The notes beneath the pieces were generated by a model, which saw only the letters and a list, made by a program, of their open reading frames with translations, was not told where the DNA came from and made no database searches. A program made the translations under genes and the position numbers. A stretch of DNA of 63,908 bases, the filler included, from Licmophora abbreviata (taxonomy: Eukaryota): NCBI GenBank assembly GCA_900291995.1. It is 15 parts of 15 records of this genome, joined end to end, with 100 filler letters (N's around TTAATTAATTAA, not from the genome) between each part and the next. Parts side by side here need not be neighbours in the genome. Positions count along the whole stretch, not along the records: positions 27,849 to 33,789 come from OLMU01004073.1; 14 more parts are not named here. One strand, given 5' to 3'. How positions within the stretch are numbered: the first letter of the stretch is position 1; each line of letters opens with the position of its first letter. Below are positions 2,694-39,375 of this stretch, piece after piece.

Positions 2694-4042
2694 TTACGCC
2701 ACCTGTTTAATCATGAAGCGATCGGACGGTTCGCTGATAGGTTTTGGCTTCATAGTCTTTGAGCCAACGCGGTGACTCGCAGCATGGCCTGGGGCGTTTT
2801 CGCACCCAACGCACTGGCAAGAATCCGTGCAATTCTGACCAATATAGTAACATTGGCAGTATTTCTTCAAGCATTTCGATTTTGGGCAGCTACATGTGAC
2901 CTCTTCATTTTCACCCAGCTTCAGCATGGCCGCTCGGTTCTCCTTGCGCGTGGGGCGACGCCCCATGAAAGCATTCTTGTCGCGCTTGAGGACCTTCTCG
3001 ACGGCTTCTAGGCGAGCAGCGCTGTGGACGCTAGTATTCTCACAGTCTTTGCAGCTGCACCTCTCGGCATCGCAGAGCGCACGCTGTAATAGTAAAAAAA
3101 GAAGCGAAAGAAGGGAAACTGTGAGCCAACGTGCGCGACAGGTTTTTCTTTTCAATAATGGATAGACGTTTCACTTACCCCAGCAAAGCATTCGCAGTAC
3201 AGTTTCAAGCAACGATTATTCTTGCATCGGCAAGAGCGTTCTTCATCCGTCGTTGTGCGAACAGGCTTCAAGCTTTTTCCTGGGACCACGGCATTTGTGT
3301 TCGAGTTCTTTGTTAGCTCTTTCAGAGGATCGCGTGTTGCTTCTTTCGATCGCTTCCGCATAGGCAGTTTGTGATTGGGGACAGACGTTCGCTTCTTGCT
3401 GACACTTCGAGCCGGCTTGACTGGTGTTGGAGATTTCGTGAGATCAATATCTGGGACGATGTCATCGTCAAAGCGGTACCGGTAGGCAGTGGAGATGTCG
3501 GGAACATTCTGCGGCTGGGGCGTCGGAGTCGGGACTGTCTGACGACCCCGTCTCACGGGGGTCTCCTTCGACTCGTCGGTTTTCTTTGGAGTTCTGATCA
3601 TCATACTGGCGTAGAGAAGGCAGTCAAATTGACTGCGAGAGAGTTCGGGTCGATTGGTACTAGTCTTCTTTTTGCCTTCGACACCGATACGGGCTGTGGG
3701 AGTGGCAGCAACACGTGCAGGTGGCGGCATGGTCTCTACGGCTGCCAAACCCCGAGCCGTTCCTGGCCTGCCGTGAACACTCTCTTGACGATCATCGCTG
3801 GTGGACCATTGATAGTGGTTTGCGGTGAAGGTGGGAGCAGGCGGGACTGGTGCATACGGATACTGACGGTGTGCGTTCGGCTCCACATGCCGCCGCTCAA
3901 AATGGCGAGCTTGCGGTGCCAACCGAGAACCTGGGAGGGTCGCCCGGTACACTGTCGGGTGATCATCTCGGCGGTCGACCGTGCCGTTCGGCGCAGAGGC
4001 GAAAGAAGAAGGGTAGCGGTATATGGAAGGGTTCATGGTCAA
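2694..4042 (-). CDS. Tesmin/TSO1/LIN54-like CXC (CRC) domain DNA-binding protein; exons ~4042-3179 and 3083-2694
   Basis: Removing the GTAAGT...TACAG intron (3178-3084) gives [34 protein letters not shown]. An R.P.AF-like hinge (KRDKNAF) follows, then a second CRC domain CSCPKSKCLKKYCQCY...CTDSCQCVGCEN. Confidence 0.9.
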
Positions 4043-8531: not shown

Positions 8532-10463
8532 ATGTCGGAGCCGCAAACATTGGTCGATAGCTTCTTGAAATGGGCGGAAAAGTGCCCGGACCGCCGTTTC
8601 ATGACGCAGCCCATGGTACGTGCCTGCACGCGAGTCGAACACGACTTGAGAAAGTGCTTGTTTTGCTGCGTTTGCGGGACGAACTCGTCGTTCTGACTCC
8701 TTGTTTTCTTCTCACAGGGCGGAGGGGATGCGAACCTCAAGTACTGGACTTTCGCGGAAGTCCTGGACGAGGCCAAACGCATGGCAGCCTACCTCGAGAG
8801 CCTCAAGCTCCCCAAAGGGTCCAAGGTTGCTCTCATGAGTAAGAACTGCAGCTACTGGATCATTGCTGATCTTGCCATTTGGCTTGCTGGACATGTCACG
8901 GTTCCTGTCTACCCTACACTCACTGCTGATACGGTCAGTTACATCCTGGAGCACTCTGAGAGCAAGCTCCTCTTCATTGGCAAGCTCGACGACAATCCAT
9001 GGGGCGAGATGAAGAACGGAGTGCCCAAAGGTCTCCCAACGGTCAGCTTCCCCCTTTCGCCTGCCGGCGACTACGATGGAGGCAAGCATGCCAAGTGGGA
9101 TGACTTGATCAAGAAATTCCAGCCCATTTCCGAAATCGTCACTCGCACCCCGGCGGAAATGGCCACCATCATTTACACGAGCGGCAGTACTGGACGCCCC
9201 AAGGGAGTCATGCATGACTTCGACACCATGTTCGTCACCACTGTCGGCATTGTCGAGCAGCTCAACGCAACTGACAAGGATCGCTACCTCAGCTACCTTC
9301 CTCTTGCTCATGGCATGGAACGTTGGTTGGGAGAGTGCGTTGCACTCCAGGCTGGGGTCGAGCTCTTCTTCGCTGAAACCTTGGCTACCTTTGTCAAGGA
9401 CTTGAACCGTGCCGAACCGACTCTCTTTGTCTCTNNNNNNNNNNNNNNNNNNNNNNNNNNNNNNNNNNNNNNNNNNNNTTAATTAATTAANNNNNNNNNN
9501 NNNNNNNNNNNNNNNNNNNNNNNNNNNNNNNNNNTGAACCGTGCCGAACCGACTCTCTTTGTCTCTGTTCCCCGACTCTGGACGAAATTCCAGTTGGGTG
9601 TCTTCAAGAAGATGCCCCCTGGAAAGCTCAACTTTCTTCTCAAGGTGCCTGTAGTCAGCTACCTGATCAGAAAAAAGATTGTGAAGGGTCTTGGCCTGCA
9701 CAAGGTGCGGATTGCGGGCTCTGGTTCTGCCCCCATCCCGGCAGAGCTCATCATGTGGTACCGTAATCTTGGATTGGAGCTTCTCGAGGGATACGGAATG
9801 ACGGAGAACTTCAACTACAGTCACTTGAGTCTCCCGGGGAAGTCCCGTGTGGGCTACGTCGGAAATGCCTATCCCAATGTGGACGTGCGCATTGCCGATG
9901 ACGGAGAAATCCAGATCAAGAGTCCTGGTCAGATGATGGGATACTACAAGAACCCGGAAGCGACCAAGGAAACCATGACGGATGATGGCTACCTTCGTAC
10001 CGGAGATCGTGGAGAGATTGACTCGGCGGGACGGCTCAAGATTACGGGTCGTACCAAGGAACTCTTCAAGACTTCCAAGGGCAAGTACGTGGCCCCGGCT
10101 CCGATCGAGAACAAAATTATCAATCACCCCTTGATTGAACTGGCTTGCGTGGGCGGATCTTCTTTCCCGCAGCCTCATGCGGTGGTGCAGCTGAGCGAGG
10201 ATGCCAAAAAGGATGCGGCTTCGGGCGAAAAGGCGTCGATCGAGGCGGCGTTGCTTGCCCACCTGAAGGCGGTCAATCCTACCTTGGATCAACACGAGCA
10301 GATGGAATTTCTGGTCGTTGTCAAGGACGACTGGTTGCCGGAGAATGGATTCTTGACCCCCACGCAAAAGATTGTCCGACGCAAGATCGAGGAGGAATAC
10401 AGCCCGAACAGTGAGACGTGGTACGGCTCGAAGAAGAAGATCATTTGGTATGGCTGGGACTGA
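8532..10463 (+). CDS. Long-chain acyl-CoA synthetase (AMP-binding); exon 1 8532-8615, intron 8616-8717, continuous across linker 9435-9534
   Basis: IIYTSGSTGRPKGVMH, YLPLAH, EGYGMTE, YLRTGDRG, GRTKELFKTSKGKYVAP and LTPTQKI motifs. 32 nt (9403-9434) are duplicated after the gap (9535-9566). Confidence 0.93.
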
Positions 10464-24971: not shown

Positions 24972-27748
24972 CATCTCTACGCGGATTAGGGTCCATCTTT
25001 GTTTAAGAGTTTATCCGCTGCAATGGTGCAAGCCATGTCAATGGTGTTGTTGAGGTACTGTAGAAGTCGATTCAGTTTCTGCCAATCCTGTTCGGTACTA
25101 CGAGACACCCTGGTACACAGGAACGCAATCGTAGGGGAGATGTCACTGCGCCCCCGCTGTGACACATACAATAATTTCGCCACGGTGCTGTGGAAAAGGT
25201 CGCTCCTTGCATTGTCAAGGGAGGGAGCACCACTGTCAATCTCGAAAAGGTCCTTCGCTGCGGGAGTAGCCACCAGCCGGGAGACGTCGTCACAGAAATC
25301 TCGAATCGCCTCTCTCAGGTATTCCTTCATCGTAATGGTAACACTAGCGTCTTCGTTGAAGGTGATGTCCATCCCCAGGAAAGAATGCTGTTTGCCTCGC
25401 GTTACTGTCATTTTTCCAAATTTGGTCTCAATCAAAGCGATGATCTCAGACACTACTGCCGGTTCGACGTGTGAGATCTTGTTGTCGTTAACGTACCAAC
25501 CGATCGTGCACTGCTTCCCATTGATCATGCAGTTGGCCACACATGGATCGTAAGGGTTGATGACAAATCCTCTGTCTTATCAACGTGGTTACAAACGAAT
25601 CGTACCAAAGTACGAGTAGGGCGGACTTAACACACCCGTAGAGGGTCTTGAACAGGCGAACGTATAATACTCGACATCCCTTCTCGACTATCACGAACGG
25701 CGTGTACTTGGGATTCACGTCACATATGATGCCAACGGCGTCCCCGGTGAGACGCATCAATACAAAATCCTCCATGTCAGGGTGTAGATATGCACCAACT
25801 ACATCGGCTGTGGCCACATCCCGTTTCTCCAAACCATCTATCATGAGCGAGATCATGAGTGCATCTGTCGATATGGTGGGTGAGGTGGTCTCCGCACGGG
25901 TGTAAAGGCTGCGCTGCGGACGACCGTCGGCACACGTACGGCCCTTGAGTTGTCCGGACCGCTGTTCTTTGATCAGGTTCACCGCACGTAATGCTCCATG
26001 CTTTTCTTCGACGGACAATTCAGACGGGTCCATTGCCTCGAACACACCTTTGTCGTCTAGCTGAGCGAACTCCTTAAAGAGCGCGTCTACCGCTCCTTGG
26101 CCGTGCTTCTTTATGCCTGCCTTCGCCGTCATTTGCGTGAAGACCTGTCCAAATACGTGAGTACGCAGGGACTTCGGGTCGCTTGGTAGTTGGTGTATGG
26201 CTTGCTGTAGAAGTTGTACTCCACTGGTACCGGGAACATCGCTCGCGGGTTCTGCATCGATCTGTCGGTCATAGCGGTGTTCGTAACTGCGCGCACGGTC
26301 GCCTCTGAGATTGTATCCATGCCCGGTAACATCATCGGTTTCTCCAGGGACATCCTCTGCTTCAAGTGGTTCGTTTTCATCCGGCTGTTTGTCTATCGCT
26401 TCGTCATCCTCGATGGGCGCTCCTTCATCTGCAACTTGAGGCACTTCTCGTCGGCCTCGTGTGTTGCCACATTGATGTCATTGTCACTGTCATCGCTGTC
26501 ACCGTCGTGATCGTATTCGTAGTCAGGAACATCAGCCGCCAATGGGTCGTTGTTGTCGTCCTCGGGGCCATCTTCGTCCTTGCCGGGATCAGCGTGTTCG
26601 TTATCGCCGTCATCGTCGCCGTCAGTGTTTCTTCCTCAATAATGATATTGGGGTGCCACTCGTACTTCATGGTCCCTCCTTGGATGCGTGGTTGCCCCTG
26701 TGCGATGGCCATGGCTTTTACAGTCTGAATCACCTCCGAGGTGACGGGGAACTGTCCATTGACGTCGACTCAAACGAGCACCGGTGGTGAGTGACATGAA
26801 ATGATAGTCACCCTGTTCATTCCCAGTCAGGTTGAGGGCGATTGCACCGGTCATACGTGTAGCTGTGGAGTTGCTTCCTGGGGATGGGCTGTTGTCTTCA
26901 AAACCTGTGCGTAGGAGCCAAACTCGAGCTTCATCTTGTTGTAGTCTGGGTTCGCCAGTCCGGTGACAATCGATCGTGGGCTGAGGGTCTTCGATACGCC
27001 ATTCTTGGCCAGAAAAAGGTTCAAATTCTTAACTGCATGCTTGACTACCTCCTTGATTAACAGAATAGGGAGGCGCCTGTAGGGTAGGCCGTGGATAGTG
27101 GAGCGGGTGCCTCCTTGATTGTCCGAATGGAATGCTCTACCTCGCCGACATGGTCGTCTGCGGCGGTCACGTTGAGTGTCGTTGGCAAGATGTCATTTCG
27201 AATACACTCAAACTCACCGTCGGAGTGGAAACCATTCACGCGGAAACCTCTCGTCTGGTAATGGTTGATGATAGCTTGGGTCTCGCGGAGCAAAGTGGCT
27301 TGCTGCCGGTTTGGCAGGGTGGCAACCGTTCGAAATTGGATCTTTCGGGGTATGGTGTGAAAAAATGGGATGCCATGTACGTAGAAGATGTCACCACAAA
27401 TGGTGACGTCACCGTGATGCTTCAGGATCGGATGGGTTTGGGGAGACGGTGACACTAGGGACGTGAATGGACGGCCCTTTTGTGGTTTTTCCTTTTAGTG
27501 TGGCCACATCTGGGCCGTAGATCTGAAGTGCCCTCTTGGCATCTTGAACTGTAACCGGACAGTTGATGATGAGATTGTTCTGTAGGATACTCAGGAAATT
27601 CTTTTGGGATGGGCAACCAATTTTTCAATACAGCACCACAGCCGCATCCGCTCCTGCAATTTTGCGGGGGGTGAAACGAGACTTCTCGGCTGCTAGTGTT
27701 GATAGAAAAGAGTAGGGGGTAACTGGGGCACTAGTAGAGTTAGCGACG
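24972..27748 (-). mobile_element. Degenerate Ty1/Copia (CoDi-type) retrotransposon pol: pre-integrase region, integrase and reverse transcriptase
   Basis: NNLIINCPVTVQDAKRALQIYGPDVATLKGK. Integrase GDIFYVHGIPFFHTI, HSDGEFE, HVGEVEHSIRTIKE. RT GQLKGRTCADGRPQR, ATADVVGAYL, KTLYGCVKSAL, WYVNDNKISH, FHSTVAKLLY. Integrase precedes RT (Copia order). Multiple frameshifts and stops. Confidence 0.93.
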
Positions 27749-27848
27749 NNNNNNNNNNNNNNNNNNNNNNNNNNNNNNNNNNNNNNNNNNNNTTAATTAA
27801 TTAANNNNNNNNNNNNNNNNNNNNNNNNNNNNNNNNNNNNNNNNNNNN

Positions 27849-30800
27849 GCCCGAGCTGACGGTCGGGGGGGGAGCCATGGATTCGCTCGGCGCTGGACTG
27901 CGCGAAGGGCTGCCACTGAGACGCTCGCCAAAGCAGGCGCATACAAATCGGACTCCACCAGCTTCAGCAAAGCTGACCGTCAATGATTCGACATTCTCTT
28001 CGTCGACCAACACATTCTGAACAGAATTCTCGCCAATGCCATTAATCGGAATAATTTTGGAGCTTCCATCAGACATTTCGACCTCCAAAAAGTCGTTCTG
28101 GCCTTCAGCGACGCCCAATAGTCCAATCGACACTAGCTCGATGACTGGACTCTCGAATGTGAACGTGATATTCCCGCCGCCCTGGTTCTCGCCTGCGTCA
28201 AGTGCGCCGCTTTGTTGGATGACCAGAACATTGCCCTGAGGTTCGCAGTTCTGCCCTGGGCTTCCCGGTTCTCCTCCTGAGCCCACTCCTGGGCCTGATG
28301 GGCTACATTTGACATTAGGACTTCCTAGATCGGGGTCGGCCTCTGGCGCCGAAGTATTGAAAACAAGAGCGCTTCCGTCTGGGGTGACTGTGCCCTCATC
28401 TGATACTGCTGTGACAATCATTCCATACATGTGAAACCACTCATACTTGACGTACTGACCACCAATCAATGTTGAGCCGTCTCCTGATGTCGAAAAGTCA
28501 ATGCATTCTTTGTTCTCGACGCAGGAATGCGATGGTGATTGGCTTGGCGCCGGGCTGACACTAGGTCTCTCACTCGGCACCACCGGTTTCGCACTCGGCT
28601 CTTCACTGGGTTCTGGACTCTTAGTCACCTCATTGCTGGGCACAGCTGAAGGGAATGGCGTCGTCCCCGGTTGTGCCCCAAAGATAGGAGAAGAGGTTGG
28701 TGACGCAGGAGCAGCAGTAGGCGACGGGGTGGGAGCGACTGGAGCGGGTGTCGGATTTTGTCCCGAATCACCAGAGTTGGCCGTCGGCCGGCGAGAAGGT
28801 GAGGGAGTGTGGCATCGGTTCGGGTCTCGAGGGAATGGAGTTTTTCCAAGTGGAGCTGAAAACTTGCTTTTAAAGGTCCAAGAGCTTCCTCCAGGGCCTC
28901 CTCCAGGGCCTCCTCCTGGGCTCGAATCTCCTGCGAAGCTCTTGGAACTCTTGAAGCTCTTGTAACTCTTGTAAGGTTTGAACTTATGGACAATCGTGGG
29001 ATCAAATGGGTTGGTAGTGTACTTGGCCTTGCTCCACGTATTCTTATACTTTCCAAAAAAGTCAAAAAAACCTCCCTTGGAGGAGCCACCTCCTTTACCA
29101 CTGGAATCAAAGGCGCTGCTACCCTTGTACTTGCCGCCGCTGCCGCCCTTCCCTTTCGATCCATAATAGTCGAAGGCAGAGCTACCTTTGGCTTTGCTTC
29201 CACCCTTTCCTCCCTTGCCAGGACTAGCATCGCCGCTGGAGTTGCCCGGGCCGAAGGATCCTGGCCCATTGCTCGGTCCACCCGGAAAGGGACCTGCTGG
29301 CTGCGTGGGTCTATCGTTTGACGAATTCGCGGGAGACGGCGAGGTATCGCAATCCTCATCATCCGGCGGGCCGCCACAAGACACATGGTCTTGAGGAAGA
29401 ATGATTATCTTTCTGTTGGCCTCGACAAAATCGAAGGAGCTGGTGTCACGATCACCGTCGTCGTAGCTGTCGGAAGAGTAGTACGAATACTTGTACTTGC
29501 CCTTCTTGTGTTTGGCACTCTGGTACCGCGCATCAGCCGAAAAGTCATCAGAGTCGCTAGAAGATGAGGAGGAGGAGGAGCCCATTGACATGCCTTTGGA
29601 CTTTCCTTTGGACATTCCTAGGTCCCTGCCCATCGCGTTCGTTGCATGGCCATTGTCTTCCGACGGTGGAGTCTCTTCGTAAAGACCACGCACGCGACCC
29701 TTTCCTTTTCCACTATCGAAGTAGGCATTCTTGCTTCCTCCTTTTCCTTTTCCTTTTCCACTATCGAAGTATGCATTCTTACTCCCGCCCTTTCCTTTGC
29801 CGCCATCATAGACGGTGTATCCACCGTTGTCGAAAGCTGGAACATCACTGCAGCCGAATAAATCATCTGCATCGTATTCGACTCCAGGACAAATGAATAC
29901 CACGTTCGCACAGGCTGGATGGTTAGCCGGGATGACTCTGAATCCATCGACAACAGGGTAGGCATAGATTTCATCAGCATCGTAGTAGAAGTCGTTGTCC
30001 TGGTACTTTGACGCCGGGGAGCCCTTGGACTTGGACTTGGACTTGGACTTGGACTTGGACTTGGAGTTGGACATTCCAAGAACCCGGCCTTTGGTGTGGC
30101 GCCGCGGCTTGTTCTCAAGCTCCCGACCCTTGGAGCCCTTGGAACCACCTTTGCCACCTTTGCCGCCACCTTTGCCCGACGAGTAAGTGTCAAAATTGCC
30201 CTTGGCACCGCCTTTGCCGCCCTTGCCCCCTTTTCCGGGGCTCGAATCACCAATCACATTGTCAAACGCATCCTGGGGCAGCCACTCCCCGGGGAACTGA
30301 CAACGACAACCATAATCGGCTTCATCTTCGGACACATTCACCGATTGCGTCGTCTTCTTGCGGTCGCGGTCTTGACGATCATCGGCGGAGGCGGCATCCG
30401 TGCGGCTAGGCCTGGCGCGCGCACCAGAGTCTGCGCGGGATCCAAACCCTAAGAAGTTTCGGACAAGCGATCCGAAATCTCGTCGCGCGCTGCCGCGCGT
30501 CGTTCCATCCCCGCCCGATCGACCTCCACGACTCGAGCGACGAGCGGACGTCGTCCTCGTCGTCTTGGTGGCAAAGGACCGGACTTGAGTCGTCGACTGA
30601 GAAGTCCTGCTCGATCCTCCTTCACGGGAAGTCTTGCTGGTATCACCAGCCTCCCACCTGATGAAGCTTGCCGCAACATCTTCTTCTTCGGAGTCGCCTG
30701 GACGGGCCATGGTCGAGCCTACGCTGTGCTCGCGGGACGTCCTAGTAGACCCTCCATCAGCGCTTGCAAGATCACGATGAATTCCCTGCAAGTTCTCGGA

Positions 30801-31499
30801 GTAACTCGTACCAGGGATGATGTATCCATCTCGATCCAACAAGCAATCGGTACAGTCGTCATCTTCGCCACTTGCTGCGGCTGCAACTTGCTGGTGTCGG
30901 ATATGGAAGTCGGTCCATTCAGCGCCTTGAAAGAACAGTTTCAGCATCTCCGGAATCGGGCTGATACCACTTCCCTTGAAATCGACATCATCCACACCTT
31001 CAACCTCATCAGATTCAAAAGTACCTCCTTCTTCAGCGGAGTGGTCATCTGCGGTCGCAAGAGGGTCATTCTCCTCTCCCTTCAAGACCGCAGCGCCAAC
31101 TGAGCCAACCAATTCCTCGGACCGGGCCTTCATCGCCTCGCCCTTCCTAGGCTTGGTTTCCTTCCCATCGCTGCCGATCGCCTTATCCTTAGAGTTTTCA
31201 GCGGAGAAAAGATTCTCCACATCTTCCTCGTCAGCAAGGGCTCCGGCAGAACCAGAGTTGGTGATGGTGCCCCAAAGGTTCGAGAGAATCGAACCAAATG
31301 CACCACCAGAGGGTGACTTGGTCACTCGTTTGATGCCAGCCTCGCCATACGTCAACACGCCTGCACCAAGCAACAAACAAAGACCAAGTCCCGCCATAAT
31401 GATCTTGTCGTTCCGCTTCTTACTCACTGCAGCATTCAAGCCTGCAGCTTTCGAGTTGCGACTACGACGACGACTGCCGCGGGTAGGACGGCGCGCCAT
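27849..31499 (-). CDS. Large N-anchored extracellular/luminal protein with silaffin/cingulin-like K/G/S/Y-rich segments, RxL sites, Pro/Ser/Thr stalk and C-terminal globular domain; 3'-truncated
   Basis: More than 1200 aa uninterrupted. Basic N-terminus then TM IIMAGLGLCLLLGAGVLTYG. GKGGKGG, (KS)n and YFDSGKGKG repeats. RDL, REL, RVL, RGL, RDL motifs. PSxxP stalk. DPDLGSPN..C...GNVLVIQ domain. Confidence 0.8.
30026..30066. repeat. (GACTTG)n hexamer run encoding (KS)n on the minus strand
   Basis: TGGACTTGGACTTGGACTT... tandem array. Confidence 0.9.
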
Positions 31500-32184: not shown

Positions 32185-33944
32185 ATGCAACATCGACGCA
32201 CCTTGCTCGTCTTGTTGCTTTCCTTTCAAGCGATTCTTCCTGCCTTTTCCTGGACCCGACCTACGTCCATGCTTCGTCGATCGGCCCGACGCTATTCTCG
32301 TGCCATGTCTTTCGCTTCTCTCCAGGAACTCGCGCAGCGCCTCATAGTTCAGGCCGATCCCGACCCTCCGTTGGTATGCATCGTCGTGGCCGGAGGAGGC
32401 GGTTCGGCCATTTCGACGCTGGCGTCGACCGAGGGAGCATCGAGCCTCTTTCTCGAAGGAACTCTCACGTATGATCAGAACGCTTTTCATTCGTATACGA
32501 ATCTTCCCCAAAAAAGCGCAGACGACGAAGACTTTCGGTACGTGTCTTCCGAAGCGGCGCACTTGTTGTCTAGAGCTGCTCTAGAGCGAGCGATGCGATA
32601 CAGACCTCAGTTGGTAGACCAAATCCGCTGTGTCGGAATCGGTTGTACCTCCAGCCTAGTTTCCTGTCAGAGTAGACCGAGACCAGGGCGTGTCAGTCGC
32701 GGGCACATTGTAGCCTCACGAGCTGACGGTACAAAATGGGAGTGCAGCGTCACGCTGGCGTCCAACAAACGTAGTCGGTTCGATGAGGACGTTCTCATGA
32801 GCCAGTTGGTATTGAAAAGTCTGGAACAACTACAAGGTAAAGAATCTGACCTGAGCGAGTTTTTGGAGGGTGATGATCAAGGTGATCACTGGATTCATGG
32901 GGATGATGGGTCTATCGACGTTGTTGAAGAAAGTGCAAGGATGATTGTCGAAGGCTCAGTGGGATCCGTGTTGCTCGTTCCTCGGAAAGACAACACGTTT
33001 ACCGCTTTGAGAAAGCCGACATTGCCACAAGGTTCTTTGCTCTTTCCTGGTAGTTTCAATCCACCTCATATCGGCCATATAACACTGGCAAATGTCGCTG
33101 CGGCCAAATGGAAGGAGAGCACAGCCTGTCCAGCGGTTCTGATGGAATTGTCGGTCACAAATCCCGACAAGCCTTCTATCGACCCTGAAATGGTTTCGAA
33201 GAGAGCGCACAAGTTCTTCGAACTCGAAAACCTGCCGGAGAACTGGGGCGTTTTGCTTTCCAGTGCCCCATTGTTCTCCCAGAAGGTGGATGTTTTTGCT
33301 CAACAGATTGTGACTGGTGAGTGCTCAATGCTCGTAGATGTGAATGAGTTTGGGGGTTTATGGACACACGCCGACTGACTCATGTTTCTTCCCTGATGCA
33401 CACAGTGGACAAAGAATCTCCCAATATGGCTTTTGTCATTGGTACTGATACGATGGTGCGAATCCTGGACCCGAAGTATTATGGAAATAGCGAAGCTGCG
33501 ATGCTGGAAGCCGTCTTCGAGATGAAAAGAAAGGGCATCCATTTTATTGTCGGGGGTCGTCTAGAGAATGGAAGGAAAGAAAGTGGGTGAGTAATCTTTT
33601 CTGTGAATGCCTCCATAATTTATTGCAACTCATTCGCATTGTGCGGGTTGTCGGGCTGTAGAAAGTTTGTTTCGGGGGAGGACGAGCTAGAAAGATTACC
33701 CCAAGATCTTCAAAACATGTTCACCCTCCTCACAGAAGACGAGTTCAGACTGGATATAAGCAGCACTGAATTAAGAACTAATCAATCTTNNNNNNNNNNN
33801 NNNNNNNNNNNNNNNNNNNNNNNNNNNNNNNNNTTAATTAATTAANNNNNNNNNNNNNNNNNNNNNNNNNNNNNNNNNNNNNNNNNNNNGTTCAGACTGG
33901 ATATAAGCAGCACTGAATTAAGAACTAATCAATCTTCAGGCTAA
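32185..33944 (+). CDS. CinA/PncC-like plus nucleotidyltransferase (NMNAT/NadD-like) fusion; introns 33317-33405 and 33587-33661, continuous across linker 33790-33889
   Basis: VVAGGGGSAISTLASTEGASSLFLEGTLTY, FPGSFNPPHIGH (HIGH motif), ELSVTNPDKP, APLFSQK, FVIGTDTMVRILDPKYY and FRLDISSTELR. 47 nt duplicated across the gap. Confidence 0.88.
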
Positions 33945-34010: not shown

Positions 34011-36520
34011 CTAGCGTCTCGGCGGTTGGTCATTGTGTCGGCTTCGTCGGCGAGAAGGCCCCCCTCTCTGACCTCTGCCGTTGCGATATCCAGGGGGCTC
34101 CGGCGGCATAAACCGGCCATGGGAAGGCTCGGGGTAATCGTGCCTCTGTACCTGTGGAGGTCTCCTGGCCGGGTCGTGGGGCGCTCCACCGCCCCTGTGG
34201 TAGTCGCGACGGAAAGGCTCCTCCACGGGCGCATCGTGTTGGCTCCCTTCTTCCCTCCGACGGGAGCGGCCTTCACGTTCCCGCCCATCCGATCTTTTAC
34301 TTCGTTCCCTTTCTCGCGAGCTGGCGTGACGTTCACGGTCGCTCTTCCTGTGCAGGTGTTGGCCACCATCTCTCTCCCTCCTACTATCTCGACGTTCGCG
34401 TTCATGGTGTCGCGACGGGTCGCGACCGTGGTCACGATGCGATGATGTTCGGTGTCGCTCCTTGTGCTTCGAACGCTCTCTAGGAGAAGATTCAAGATGT
34501 CGGGAAGAGCGCTCTTGAGGAGAAGATTCGAGCTGTCTGGGAGCGCTCGCTCGAGGAGAAGACTCAAGTTGTCGAGAAGAAAGCTGGTCTCGGCTACTTG
34601 CACCGCGGCCTTCTTCATAAGTATCATTCTTCGATTTTTCCAACTTTTGTTTCTTCGACGATCGGTCTTCGGATGGCTCCACGGCACCGACACCGTTGAC
34701 GTCCCACTCCTCGCGACGGCTGTGATTTCTGTCGTCCGTTTGATCCATTCGTTGTCGCTTTTGACTCGAAGGGTCTTTCCCATGGCTCCGTGCCGCAGGA
34801 TCTTTATGATTGGCCCTATCTCTTCCATCCTGCCGCCTGTCGCCCGGCATGTCTTGTTCCTTGATATCGCTGCTTTTACGAAGCATATCTTTTGCGCGCG
34901 CAACACCATCCTGAGAAGCCTCCATCGGTCTCGGGGCAGCTCCATCGATTTTTCGTGAGGGCACTGTTCCTAGCGCAGCATTTCCTTCCTCTGCAACCTT
35001 CTTCATGCATTCGCGATAGACAGCGTCGTATTCCGCTTCGGCTTCCTTCTCGCTCAAGCCCAGGGTTCGAGCGTCCTCGCTAGCCTTTTTCGCCACAGTT
35101 TTGGCCTCGCGTCTTTTCTTTTTCGTTTGAAACTCATGAAAGTGTCCGCCACCTCCACCAAGTTGCAACATTCCTAGCTCGGCCGGATTGTCTGGAGCTC
35201 TTGGCTCCGACAAGAAGTACCGCGATGTCAGTGCCCGGTTGGCCGTTAGGCGCTTCTTCGGATCGAGTTCGAGCAACTTTTCCAACAAATTCAAAGCTGG
35301 AACAGGCAGCTTCGATCCATATCTGTCGCGGAGTCTCGGTTTTCGATGCTTGTCAATTGCGACTTCGCCTGTCCGCAACAACTTCAAGTCATTCAATCCC
35401 TCCCATGTTTCGGCGGTAGGCGTTCCCAGTAGATCAAAGATAAGCTGCAGTTGATCCATTTCTGTCTTTCCCGTCAAGAGCGGCTTCCCCAATAGTAGCT
35501 CTGCCAAAATACACCCTGCGGACCAAACATCGACAGGAAACCCGTACCGAGTTGCGCCCAGCAATATCTCGGGAGGCCTGTACCACAGCGTAATTACCTT
35601 GTTTGTGAGTTCCTGCTGTCCTCCGCGACTGGATCGGAGTCAGAAAGCGCAAGCGACGGAAAGTTAGTAAGGAGGGGAGGGGGCACCTGAAGCGCTCAAA
35701 GAGATTTCAAGTGATACTTACTCGGTAAATGTGTCGAGAATGGGAGGTTCGATGCATCGAGCCAAGCCAAAGTCGGCCAATTTGACACGAAAGTGGGAGT
35801 CGATCAAGATATTAGAACTTTTTATGTCTCTGTGAACGTACTTGTTGTCGTGCATGTATTCCAAGGCTTCCAGTAGCTGTCGAAAGATGCTCTTTACTTG
35901 CACTTCGGTAAAGCGATACGCCACGTCCATGAGTCCAGTGAGATCGTGCGAAACGTACTCTAGAACCAAATAAATGTTTCCCTTGTACCCCTCGCGAGCA
36001 TCTACGACTCTATCTTTCTTAGAGGAGTTACGCTTACTACCCTTTTCTTCCGGCGGAGGGTCATTTTCATCGAGATACTCCACCCCCTTGGAACTTACCA
36101 CCTCCAGCATTTCGACCAGATGCGGATGACGGAGGCGTTTCAGTATCTTAATTTCGCGCAGAACAGTGGGCGGCATTCCCCAGTAGCCGCCATGATNNNN
36201 NNNNNNNNNNNNNNNNNNNNNNNNNNNNNNNNNNNNNNNNTTAATTAATTAANNNNNNNNNNNNNNNNNNNNNNNNNNNNNNNNNNNNNNNNNNNNATTT
36301 CGCGCAGAACAGTGGGCGGCATTCCCCAGTAGCCGCCATGATGGACACGGATTTTCTTCATGGCCACGATTCGACCGGAGTCCAAGCATTTCGCTCGGTA
36401 AACCTGGCCGTATGTACCCTCGCCAATCTGTTCAATGCGCTCGTAGTGGGCCAACGTGCGAGTCATGCGGTCCCACCCCGTTGGAGCATGCGTCATGTGC
36501 GAAGCCGACTGAGAAGACAT
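34011..36520 (-). CDS. Transcriptional CDK (CDKC/CDK9/CDK12-like) with Arg/Ser/Glu-rich C-terminal tail; intron 35721-35629, continuous across linker 36197-36296
   Basis: [74 protein letters not shown] and HFHEF. 46 nt duplicated across the gap. Confidence 0.93.
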
Positions 36521-39375
36521 GACGGCGGGACTGCTGCTGCCCGTCGATGCCACTACTAAACCTGAGGGTGATTTAATATGTTCGAGGGAGAGAGGGGGCA
36601 CTGAAAGCGACAGAAGCGGCCGAAAGGCGACCCTACTTTGGTCATTGTCGCGCTGCACTTTTTTCTGAAGACAAGAGAGAGTTGGCTCTTAGGCGCCTGT
36701 TTGTGGTGAGGGATGAAGCTCACGGATTAGAGGTAGCGTGATTCCTCATTCCTGATTCCTACTTTTGCCGGTCGCAGACCTTAGGATGCAGACCAACGAC
36801 CATCCCTCAACTTTGGAATAGGTGAGGACACTTGTAACCTACGTCTATACGCACCTACTCCTATAACAGGGACATCGAATGCACCGGGTAATTCCAATCT
36901 CATCATGACAGACGGCTGCAAAATATGTCAAACTACGCACTCATCCTCCGCAGAACGGAAGCGATGCGGACGGTATATCCGCTGCACAGCAAGTAATTCG
37001 CGAAAGAATAGAACCCACTGTGTATGGTAGCCTACTTTGGGGCCATTTATGTCTTAAAGTTGCGGCCTGGAGTTGGAAACTCATCGGGGAGGATACCTGT
37101 CGGATCAATTTGCTCCGCCGACTCCAACGTCACGGACCGAAGGTAGTCGTCGCCATCGCCCAGTATGGCGACGGTAACGAAGCGAAAAATGTGTGCCTTT
37201 GCTGCAGAACTATTCTTTGGTAGTACAGATGTAGGATCCATGGTGTGACAACACGTTCCGATCCAGCAATGGTCACGAAGAACACGTGATCTCTGCGTGA
37301 TGCAGTGCGAATTCATACAATCTTGGCGACGAAGTGGTCGTGTCGATACAATCTTCGATGGAGAGACTCAATTAGCCCATTAGAGCTTTCCCCGCAAATC
37401 TATCTGAGCACATAGGATGTGTGAGTGAAGTCTATCGGGAATAAAAGACGTCGCTTCATCGAAAACACACCTTTCGGGTCAGATTTCGTCGTTTGCAGCC
37501 TTCCAGGCGGCCTTTTTCACCTAAACTCCCATCGGCAGACAGTGCGTTGAGCGAGCTCCCCTCTGCAGCACCTCTAAACCTCTTCCTGTACTATGGGTAA
37601 CCTTGTGGTAGCACGAAATCGTTCGTGGGGTATTTAGAGTAGCGATTTCGGCCCATTTTGGAGAATCGCGTGAAAAAAACAACGCAGAGAATTATCAGTA
37701 TGTCGACTCGTTTCTCTCGTCGTATGTGCCTTCAGTTAACCAGCTGTGCACAGCTGGCTTTCTAATATTATGGCTTGCACTTGAAAAGTGGTTGGTGGGC
37801 GCAAATTTTATCTTCGACACGTCTGATAGTCAAGAAACCAGGGGTAGACAAGTACGTTGATTGGAGGCTTACAACAACATATCATACCACCACGACAGTG
37901 ACAAGCCCAGCAAACGTTTCAGACAACGTAGACGCTTCCACTGACATAGTGAAGTGCACTACGGGGCATTTAGAGATGCGAACGAGTTCGGAACGCCCTT
38001 CTTGGGAGTTGTGTCGTGTCTTTTCAGTCAAACTTGCGAGTAAAGTCGACTGAACATGACATTTGGCATTCTCCTCAACAGCATCGCGAGAATGGAGAAC
38101 GCGTTGCTGAACGCGGCTATATTTTCGTGGCCACGGTATATATGAACTAGAAACATGGACGCGAGGACGATTAGAAGACCAGTGTCGAAGGTATGACGCG
38201 AGTACGGATCAGACGGCGTGTACGGCACTTACCAGAAAACAAAACCTTGGAGTGCATATTCAACTGGGAACTCACAGAACCTGAATAGCTTCGATGTCGT
38301 GGGCACATTTCCGGGTCTAGCACCATTCCAGATCCTCTTTCACTCGGTTGATTGTTACTTGTAGTCGGTTATTGGCTCTGGCGGGCCACGATCGCATGGC
38401 TTCCAAGAAGATCCCGTTCATGTTTGCAGCCCATATTCCATCTTTCAATATGGACTTGTACATGCACACGTAATCCCGCCCTCAGTATTATCAACTTAGG
38501 AGCTGTAGAAGACTGGCAGAATGGCTATGCATGAATTTTGAGGAGCGCCGAAGCTCAAACCTATCTTTTTTCTGTCAGGGGCCTTCGTCCAGGGGCCCCC
38601 CGAGCGACAAAACACGTCATGTTAGACAACCAAGATCGCGCACGAGAGGCTCCACGACGGCAACCTGCTCTTACCTTACACATAGGTAATCGGTCTCTTT
38701 GGGTGGAACGACGTTCCTAAGGGCGAATATCAATCTTAACCCCCACTTTCGGTAGCTGAGCGTGGTTCTCGACCAGATCCGGGTAGCATTTCGTGCGTTT
38801 GAGGGCCCAAAAGATTGACGAAAACTCTTCTTGCCTATACCATCTTCTCAGCTTTGTCAATACAGATACGGGAAATCTGCCGTGGACTCTACAATCTGTA
38901 CAGGCACCATATTCTTAGCCTTTTCGACCCCAACGGCGATGCAAGGAGTAAACATCCGGGTGCCCAAGTGGATGCTTTTTCTCACAGGACCCAGGACGTT
39001 TCACATGATCAAGCCTCTTCTCCTGCACAACTACTACAGTAAAGAAAGAACGACAATTGAAACCATCTGTGCGGTGGAATGCAAATAGCAATGGCGAAGA
39101 CCCACTGCAAAGACGGCTTATCATACCACCAGTAGAGAAAGCGNNNNNNNNNNNNNNNNNNNNNNNNNNNNNNNNNNNNNNNNNNNNTTAATTAATTAAN
39201 NNNNNNNNNNNNNNNNNNNNNNNNNNNNNNNNNNNNNNNNNNNTTTTGATTTCTGACGCGTTCGCGCCAAACAGGACTTTCTAGTCGAATGGGTCAGCTC
39301 TCTGATTTCGCTGCTCCCGACTTCTGCCGCCCAAAACAAAATACTCTAGCGTACGACGTAGCAACGACTTCGACC

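Follow-up and report, generated by a model that had tools for sequence, protein, structure and literature searches.

A putatively signal-anchored, lysine-rich diatom protein joined to a carbohydrate-binding-module-like domain, a candidate matrix protein of the cell surface or wall

Silaffins and cingulins are defined biochemically by a tight association with biosilica, by lysines modified with polyamines, by phosphoserines and by an ability to precipitate silica; Y-type cingulins share a conserved N-terminal motif. By sequence, the lysine-rich proteins of diatom cell walls have been delimited in several ways in the publications cited here. Silaffin-like proteins were defined by a signal peptide together with repeated KXXK motifs in which X is Ser or Gly (Brembu et al., PMC5501833). 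A related screen counted two or more K(X)2K motifs with a gap of at most 4 residues as a lysine-enriched region, demanded a signal peptide and excluded transmembrane domains (Fattorini & Maier, PMC9650480). Cingulins are composed of KXXK-containing regions alternating with Trp/Tyr-rich regions, and the Sil1p precursor consists of repeat units, each with an RRIL/RRNL end (PMC4557024). A pentalysine pattern, K..K..K.{1,2}K..K, was found in 29% of silica-associated proteins compared with 1.5% of the background proteome; the same study predicts a single transmembrane domain for 18 of the silica-associated proteins and describes Sin1, SAP1 and SAP3 as type I (Skeffington et al., bioRxiv 10.1101/2021.09.18.460806). 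Here we analyse an open reading frame (ORF) at positions 27849-31499 of the minus strand of a 63,908-nucleotide stretch of DNA (the window, filler included) from the assembly GCA_900291995.1 of Licmophora abbreviata. The encoded protein, P0001, had been read in an initial annotation as a membrane-anchored, silaffin- or cingulin-like polyprotein punctuated by RxL motifs.

Our preferred interpretation, to which we give slightly better than even chances, is that P0001 is a signal-anchored, largely disordered matrix protein of the cell surface or wall, which is possibly shed at RxLGM sites. The observations presented below concern the sequence anatomy of P0001, its orthology, the fold and distribution of one of its domains and the diatom nature of its host. 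The gene comprises the following segments (positions in P0001 are given as amino acids, aa):

27849..31499, minus strand: ORF of 1217 codons, start defined, 3' end open
31404..31499, minus strand: basic tail, aa 1-32, predicted to be cytosolic; 12 Lys and Arg, 1 Asp, net charge +11
31347..31403, minus strand: hydrophobic segment, aa 33-51, putative signal anchor (N-in); Kyte-Doolittle value 2.13
30957..31346, minus strand: acidic segment, aa 52-181, disordered-like; net charge -14, 35% identical to the orthologue
30768..30956, minus strand: most conserved block, aa 182-244 (IPEMLKLFF...CxxC...GIHRDL), ending in RDL242
30315..30767, minus strand: S/R/T-rich segment, aa 245-395, disordered-like by composition and charge/hydropathy
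28830..30314, minus strand: K/G/S-rich low-complexity region, aa 396-890; Gly 18%, Ser 15%, Lys 12%
28524..28829, minus strand: P/S/T/A-rich mucin-like linker, aa 891-992; Pro 25%, Ser 20%
27930..28523, minus strand: beta-sandwich domain (C-domain), aa 993-1190, of an unannotated family; 6 Cys, net charge -23
27849..27929, minus strand: P/S-rich linker, aa 1191-1217, running into a gap; in the orthologue P0012 it leads into SdrD_B repeats

A search with aa 1-720 against 5.8 billion clustered sequences, in which 8000 candidates were scored and only proteins of 669-2130 aa were covered, found a single cluster containing the orthologues P0003 (1340 aa) and P0012 (1789 aa). Both are colinear with P0001 over all 1217 aa at 53% identity. 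P0001 shows no frameshift relative to the orthologue, and its identity to P0012 is 69% in the C-domain and 38-54% in the K-rich region. On this comparison, the P0001 gene is real and constrained. The first in-frame ATG lies at 31499, 11 codons downstream of a stop codon, and the N-terminus is well defined because the orthologue begins with the identical 12 residues. Past the point where the window gene is cut, P0012 carries SdrD_B (PF17210) in three stretches (E = 3.9e-17, 62.9 bits compared with a cut-off of 29.7). Four SdrD_B repeat units are readable in its sequence, and PF17210 is present in P0003 too.

By sequence relationship, the host is a diatom without a close annotated relative. An Alb3/YidC-like ORF elsewhere in the window has its best relatives at 63-75% identity, and all matches to it that bear an organism name are diatoms, namely Nitzschia inconspicua, Epithemia, Minutocellus, Helicotheca, Attheya and four MMETSP diatom transcriptomes; the three organisms checked from this list belong to the Bacillariophyta. 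An ESM Atlas comparison of an IscS-like ORF gave no information on the position of the host.

The N-terminus of P0001 combines a basic tail with a single hydrophobic segment, as the initial annotation had stated. The first 12 residues, MARRPTRGSRRR (31464-31499, minus strand), are identical in the orthologue, which speaks for retention and use of the tail; the whole tail is 59% identical to that of P0012. The segment of aa 33-51 is the sole strong hydrophobic segment in the 1217 aa present, and the uncharged run around it (aa 33-52) measures 20 residues in P0001 and in its orthologue. The positive-inside rule, together with the lengths usually seen in the cores of signal peptides, favours a signal anchor with a cytosolic N-terminus. 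We therefore consider such an anchor likelier than a signal peptide for P0001. As aa 33-52 provide the only candidate translocation signal, and as the C-domain lies outside the cytosol in its relatives, most of the protein would be luminal or extracellular. In addition, MARRPTRGSRRR contains Arg-Arg at positions 3-4, which matches the N-terminal di-arginine motif for endoplasmic reticulum (ER) retrieval of type II membrane proteins and could mean a regulated exit from the ER. When the sequence of P0012 was read by eye, no evident C-terminal hydrophobic segment was seen.

A confidently predicted folded part of P0001 is the C-domain, which the initial annotation had overlooked together with the P/S/T-rich linker before it, the SdrD_B repeats of the orthologue, the gap at 27849 and the tandem repeats in the DNA. 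AlphaFold2 with a family alignment predicted a beta-sandwich with a mean pLDDT (predicted local distance difference test) of 92.5 and a pTM (predicted template-modelling score) of 0.90, and a charge/hydropathy calculation likewise puts the domain on the folded side. Sequence searches of P0001 in Pfam, NCBIfam and the PDB returned nothing but chance-level Orf20 rows with E about 0.4, and 0/28 aligned members of the C-domain family had a Pfam match at a meaningful E value. Structure comparison by Foldseek retrieved carbohydrate-binding modules (CBMs), the best one being a pectate-lyase CBM (E = 1.7e-4, TM 0.43). In VIA-align 2 the best matches covered a range of Z 8-9.3 and included DUF4465/BtuJ2 (Z 9.3, root-mean-square deviation 3.9, 162 aligned residues), the CBM22 of Xyn10B (8.9) and CBM61 (8.3); CBM32 was also among the best fold matches. 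The modelled fold can thus be called CBM-like and no more, since the C-domain resembles CBM-type beta-sandwiches and DUF4465 (BtuJ) in overall fold with no sequence relationship to them.

HMMER searches of a library of 1.84 billion representatives revealed 1368 clusters related to the C-domain at E <= 1e-3, of which 94 reach E <= 1e-30; the matches span about 190 of 211 residues. The family is marked by the hallmark ...DLGSPN..C...GPG.G.GGEPG.PG.NC..GNVL.IQ..., in which a Gly/Pro-rich loop lies between two invariant Cys; all invariant columns are present in P0001, and GDPDLGSPN occurs in its relatives. Our search for literature on the DLGSPN hallmark found none. The domain is frequently present in 2-6 copies per protein. 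Its partner domains among the 40 relatives examined were SdrD_B (8/40), the type IX secretion system (T9SS) signal Por_Secre_tail (3/40), RTX repeats (2/40) and, in 1/40 each, Lectin_C/HYR, Calx-beta/GSDH, VOMI and G8/CEMIP. Three copies occur in the Por_Secre_tail proteins P0009, P0055 and P0099 and in the RTX-repeat protein P0052. An early hydrophobic run resembling a signal peptide was seen in 41 of 132 representatives starting with Met, many of the others being fragments, and P/S/T-rich windows were present in 52 of the 176 proteins fetched. The domain was also found in 4/401 sampled Bacteroidota genomes, the best match (E = 7.8e-43) lying in an open frame of 2865 aa. A comparison in the ESM Atlas gave low scores, which we treat as leads only (0.85 for unnamed bacterial clusters, 0.77 for clusters with PEP-CTERM and DUF4465). 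Four loci in metagenome-assembled genomes of Bacteroidota that had been retrieved with P0009 were discarded, as the SprB part alone was matched there, without the C-domain, and 0/4 of their genomes match the domain.

As judged from these architectures, the C-domain is a module of secreted surface proteins that is not specific to silicifying organisms. Its common occurrence in probable microalgal proteins and in T9SS or RTX surface proteins of Bacteroidota makes it a candidate for inter-domain gene transfer, for which the choice-of-anchor-A domain of diatom trail proteins offers a parallel as another possibly transferred domain. Bacterial surface proteins of the T9SS and RTX types have the same beta-sandwich, and bacterial proteins of the SdrD/MSCRAMM type have SdrD_B in common with the orthologue. 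P0001 differs from these proteins in being eukaryotic, in having an N-terminal anchor and in possessing a K-rich disordered region without counterpart there.

The part between the anchor and the mucin-like linker is of a different nature. According to the charge/hydropathy calculation, by which alone order and disorder of the N-terminal 1000 aa were assessed, nearly all of aa 52-992 counts as disordered; only the stretch of aa 516-556, where the island RVIPANHPAC...C...C is located, departs from this. The block of aa 182-244, in which 53 of 63 residues (84%) are identical to P0012, has no match in Pfam. The region of aa 396-890 contains Y/F/D tracts and lysine clusters, along with Cys islands that are conserved (CRCQ, RVIPANHPAC...C...C, LP..H..C...C). 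Cys is retained in the orthologue at 7/7 positions of this region, Arg at 10/13 and Lys at 33/60; the 55% conservation of lysine compares with about 45% across the K-rich region, and lysine clusters lie at aligned places in both orthologues.

The KxxK-dense blocks and Asp/Tyr-rich segments named in the initial annotation were all found in the translation (GKGGKGGKGGAKG, GMSNSKSKSKSKSKSKSKG, the doubled YFDSGKGKGKGGSKNA, KFKPYKSYKSFKSSKS, FRVIPANHPAC and IIILPQDHVSC). The proposed module, consisting of RxL-GM(S), a K/S run, a D/Y tract and (I/L)P..H..C, does occur twice: the Smith-Waterman alignment of the two copies scored 65 compared with 33 +/- 5.7 for shuffled sequences, and 0/1000 shuffles reached 65. 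Two of the blocks coincide with repeats in the DNA:

30024..30072, no strand assigned: hexanucleotide repeat behind the (KS)n run; unit of 6 nt, 8.2 copies, 95% matches
29701..29798, no strand assigned: tandem duplication encoding the doubled 16-aa GGSKNAYFDSGKGKGK block; 48 nt x 2.0 copies, 90% matches

The most eye-catching K blocks are young products of slippage or duplication, because the DNA that codes for the (KS)n run and for the doubled block is tandemly repeated; the (KS)n run as such is not retained in the orthologue.

P0001 contains exactly the five RxL motifs that had been reported, RDL242, REL459, RVL472, RGL604 and RDL625. This number is marginal with respect to chance (mean 2.0 over 20,000 shuffles, P = 0.046). 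The orthologue shares the motifs at 242, 472 and 625, but not REL459 or RGL604. The conservation of RDL242 is explicable without processing because it closes the 63-aa block of 84% identity. The two remaining conserved motifs open the two modules:

30072..30086, minus strand: RVLGM, aa 472-476, start of module 1; RALGM in the orthologue, after an invariant PRRHTKG
29613..29627, minus strand: RDLGM, aa 625-629, start of module 2; RHLGM in the orthologue

Since the RxLGM pentapeptide is present in 4/4 instances (two modules in two species), these two are credible candidate processing sites. The type II membrane precursor proposed by the initial annotation is partly supported: the N-terminus has the appearance of a type II signal anchor and three RxL motifs are conserved, while two are not.

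With regard to topology, glycosylation, ligand binding, cleavage and location, we infer the following working model for a signal-anchored matrix protein. P0001 would be a secretory-pathway protein restricted to a diatom lineage, which uses its own N-terminus as signal anchor and exposes a short, basic, conserved tail to the cytosol, while the remaining 1,165+ residues would face the lumen or the outside. The anchor would be followed by the acidic stretch, the 63-aa block, the S/R/T-rich stretch, the K/G/S-rich region of about 500 aa, the mucin-like, probably O-glycosylated linker and the beta-sandwich, and then, by orthology, by presumably Ca-binding repeats of the SdrD-B type which are lost in the gap here. 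The Cys islands of the K/G/S-rich region may be of the disulfide type. The lysine clusters may bind polyanionic wall material, i.e. silica and/or acidic polysaccharide, the distal beta-sandwich may bind glycan, and the RxLGM sites would let the distal part be shed from the anchor into the wall.

Several observations weigh against this model. Small residues at -3/-1 precede a conserved Glu in both orthologues (T-Y-G↓E, A-Y-G↓E), and cleavage by signal peptidase at this (T/A)-Y-G↓E might leave the protein soluble. SdrD_B was not found in the window, and this part of the model comes from one orthologue cluster. The Z scores of the fold comparison are barely above 7-8, the values which VIA-align 2 states as typical without a true match, and no CBM matches the C-domain in sequence, so that glycan binding is conjectural. 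For 25/40 of the relatives examined, the C-domain is without a known partner domain. Finally, K-rich features are not its usual partner: when two or more K[SG][SG]K motifs plus lysine clusters were taken as a combined criterion, both kinds of feature were combined only in the 3 members of the orthologue cluster among the 176 proteins, and 7 others had a single weak K-rich feature. As the combination is confined to the orthologue cluster in this set, the K-rich region is a lineage-specific insert.

The open 3' end requires separate consideration. The reading frame of P0001 enters a block of the form N44-TTAATTAATTAA-N44 on its 27848 side, and the window contains 14 such blocks (e.g. 9435-9534, 27749-27848 and 36197-36296). 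The following line gives the block in question:

27749..27848, no strand assigned: N44-TTAATTAATTAA-N44 block cutting the gene; the frame of P0001 is interrupted here

We read these blocks as probable scaffold gaps rather than joins of unrelated pieces, because an AMP-binding enzyme (8697-9434, profile positions 20-261; 9537-10460, profile positions 254-384) and a protein kinase (36299-36688 / 35721-36194) run across two of them. ORFs touching the blocks are therefore incomplete and not ended. P0001 is C-terminally incomplete, and 27849 is not the true gene end. Past the gap (25491-27748), stops occur in all 3 minus-strand frames, and a weak match to the Copia-type reverse transcriptase RVT_2 lies at 25491-26477 (E = 3e-4, under the Pfam cut-off); this stretch is probably a decayed retroelement that broke either the assembly or the gene. 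The remainder of P0012, SdrD_B included, has no match beyond the gap or elsewhere in the window. Sequence of the P0001 gene occurs, at shares of <=0.29, in marine metagenome runs, and also in one run of a coded organism that may be RNA; none of the listed runs is identified as RNA. Four of the marine runs yielded only short contigs of 57-663 nt, each over some part of the gene and most of them 99-100% identical to it; none of the contigs from the four runs lies over 27849-28364 or reaches past the gap. Scans of metagenome contigs with the queries A1 and P0012 gave no confirmed locus, and hence neither synteny nor the 3' end.

How far P0001 may be understood as a biosilica protein depends mainly on its middle region. 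The first alternative to our interpretation is that of a silaffin- or cingulin-type biosilica precursor that would be anchored in the silica deposition vesicle or the plasma membrane and cut at RxL into lysine-modified silica-forming peptides, an alternative which we regard as unlikely. The diatom host and the conserved RxL motifs 242, 472 and 625 are consistent with it, and so is the composition: P0001 has six K[SG][SG]K motifs, two regions that are lysine-enriched by the published rule (aa 423-429 and 447-457), five regions with two or more K..K inside 10 residues and 109 windows of 100 aa with K >= 10% and S >= 18%. K/S or K/G runs precede the tracts YQDNDFYYDADEIYAY, KYKYSYYSSDSYDD and AFDYYG.../FFDFFGKYK, so that K blocks alternate with Y/D-rich tracts as in cingulins, albeit by composition only. 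The strict pentalysine pattern has one match, at aa 841-853, which 11/5000 shuffles also gave, but 0 matches in P0012 and P0003; looser clusters of five Lys inside 14 residues number three in P0001 and are comparable at aligned places in the orthologue. Compared with CinY, CinW and the silaffin-like proteins of Thalassiosira pseudonana, likened here by published descriptions only, P0001 likewise shows K/S/G-rich KxxK blocks alternating with aromatic and Asp-rich tracts, RxL motifs, a diatom host, fast evolution and few detectable homologues. Unlike them, it has a long basic N-tail and a 20-residue hydrophobic anchor instead of a short signal peptide, is 3-5 times larger with irregular repeat units, and possesses Cys islands, the CBM-like beta-sandwich and, in the orthologue, SdrD_B. 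The published screens demand a signal peptide and no transmembrane domain, whereas P0001 begins with an n-region of 32 aa with charge +11, an uncharged run of 20 residues and the T-Y-G↓E pattern, and its aa 33-51 form a hydrophobic segment. A precedent for anchored proteins exists in TpSAP3 and the 18 silica-associated proteins with a transmembrane domain (bioRxiv 10.1101/2021.09.18.460806), and the luminal part of SAP3 remains in the silica after cleavage from its anchor. Silicanin-1, TpSAP1/3 and SiMat7-like proteins resemble P0001 in being single-pass and in having a long part in the lumen with many Ser residues and RxL sites. The type I architecture of these biosilica membrane proteins, with a signal peptide, a C-terminal transmembrane domain and a short cytoplasmic C-terminus, is however absent from P0001, in which the only strong hydrophobic segment of the 1217 aa present is N-terminal, which gives the opposite orientation with the 32-aa basic tail as the cytosolic part. 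Further arguments against a biosilica precursor are the RxL count barely above chance, the lack of conservation of REL459 and RGL604, the young origin of the (KS)n run and the doubled block, and the restriction to one orthologue cluster among the proteins of 669-2130 aa searched. Moreover, adhesin-type folded modules that bacteria also have make up about 330 aa here, plus about 550 aa in the orthologue. The pieces between RxL motifs are very unequal (roughly 217, 13, 132, 21 and 590+ aa), and in place of an array of short RxL-ended units as in Sil1p there are only two modules of about 150 aa, each starting with RxLGM, with irregular RxL spacing. The designation as a polyprotein is unsupported for this reason, and of the silaffin/cingulin likeness the composition of the middle region stands, whereas the repeat architecture and a conserved strict pentalysine motif do not. 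A bolder variant, which we rate as quite unlikely, would make P0001 the first type II (N-in) membrane-tethered silaffin-like precursor, which its own anchor would bring to the silica deposition vesicle or plasma membrane and which would be released at RxLGM, acting as a physical cross-linker between mineral, organic casing and membrane by means of a domain that bacterial surface proteins also have. The shed fragment would then sit in the wall, with its lysine clusters on silica and its beta-sandwich and SdrD-type modules on the polysaccharide matrix.

The same modules that speak against a biosilica precursor invite an explanation by adhesion or mucilage: a membrane-tethered, mucin-like adhesin with glycan- and Ca-binding modules would serve attachment to a substratum, to other cells or to bacteria, the basic tail being its cytoplasmic handle. 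We judge this to be an improbable account, although P0001 shares several traits with the trail proteins of diatoms. According to their description, trail proteins have P/S/T-rich regions and a bacterial-type domain known as choice-of-anchor-A (CAA), with signal peptides and no membrane anchor (bioRxiv 10.1101/2023.03.06.531300). Trailins, CaFAP1 and Ca5609 are, like P0001, modular extracellular proteins with probably O-glycosylated P/S/T-rich spacers, Cys-containing modules and a folded domain otherwise found on bacterial surface proteins (T9SS, PEP-CTERM or LPXTG anchored), so that the P/S/T linker, the Cys islands and the bacterially shared domain of P0001 have their parallel there. SdrD_B repeats, as carried by the orthologue, are characteristic of bacterial adhesins, P0001 and its orthologue agree in every one of their first 12 cytosolic residues, and a K/Y/G-rich composition is what screens for diatom adhesive proteins look for (PMC4220933). 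The one tested K/Y-rich candidate in that study, AC3362, which had been chosen as an adhesive candidate, however proved to be a cell-wall component (Buhmann et al., PMC4220933), a warning that applies in both directions. Also, the described trail proteins are without an anchor, no lysine-cluster region is reported for them in the excerpts, and the folded domain of P0001 does not appear to be of the CAA type: PF20597 and the NCBIfam choice-of-anchor models had no match in P0001, and a GDPH domain did not turn up in the Pfam/NCBIfam searches, which included no GDPH model. A raphid or adhesive habit of the host is not fixed by the Alb3-like ORF, which has a raphid pennate as its best named match at 72% and matches centric species at 69-71%. 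Very unlikely in our view is the third alternative, that of a truncated or decaying gene copy whose 3' part was displaced by a retroelement, so that the ORF would not represent the functional protein. The ORF indeed enters a gap beyond which there are stops in all three frames, the weak RVT_2 match and no SdrD_B or gene-like continuation. Yet 1217 codons are open without a frameshift relative to the orthologue, other genes cross such blocks, so that the missing part may lie in an unsized gap, arrays of SdrD_B-like repeats often break short-read assemblies, and the 99-100% identical contigs in four marine runs show that the sequence is not an assembly artefact. We thus retain the signal-anchored matrix protein as our preferred interpretation and regard P0001 as a reasonable candidate for, and not a demonstrated, biosilica protein.

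Other genes of the window were noted in passing. In the divergent neighbour at 32185-33375 (plus strand, 397 aa), a region with cytidylyltransferase-like motifs was recognised (PF01467, E = 2.6e-5), and a weak similarity to CinA was seen as well (E = 0.002). This gene may be a fusion of the nicotinamide mononucleotide (NMN)-adenylyltransferase/CinA type and has no relation to P0001. Two neighbouring ORFs at 2697-4042 (minus strand) carry Tesmin/TSO1-like CXC domains (E = 1.9e-12 and 7.7e-6) and are probably exons of a single CXC-domain regulator. Three ORFs of exactly 613 aa looked repeat-like at first sight and turned out to be unrelated, and a scan for bacterial promoters and terminators upstream of the P0001 ORF was set aside as it has no meaning for a eukaryotic gene.

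Species-specific low-complexity proteins with lysine clusters are common in diatoms, and membrane-anchored ones are already known. P0001 is unusual in its N-terminal anchor, in its RxLGM pentapeptide and in being fused to a CBM-like domain and SdrD-type modules. A search of titles and abstracts, with the supplementary tables of silica-associated proteins outside its range, found no literature on a biosilica protein with a type II or signal anchor. The C-domain represents a well-folding, unannotated family of at least 1368 clusters, which should receive a family entry and be tested for gene transfer. If P0001 is wall-associated, RxLGM would give a more precise candidate recognition site for the processing protease of diatoms than RxL by itself, and an anchor of opposite orientation as well as glycan-binding or adhesin modules would be added to the lysine-cluster repertoire of diatoms.

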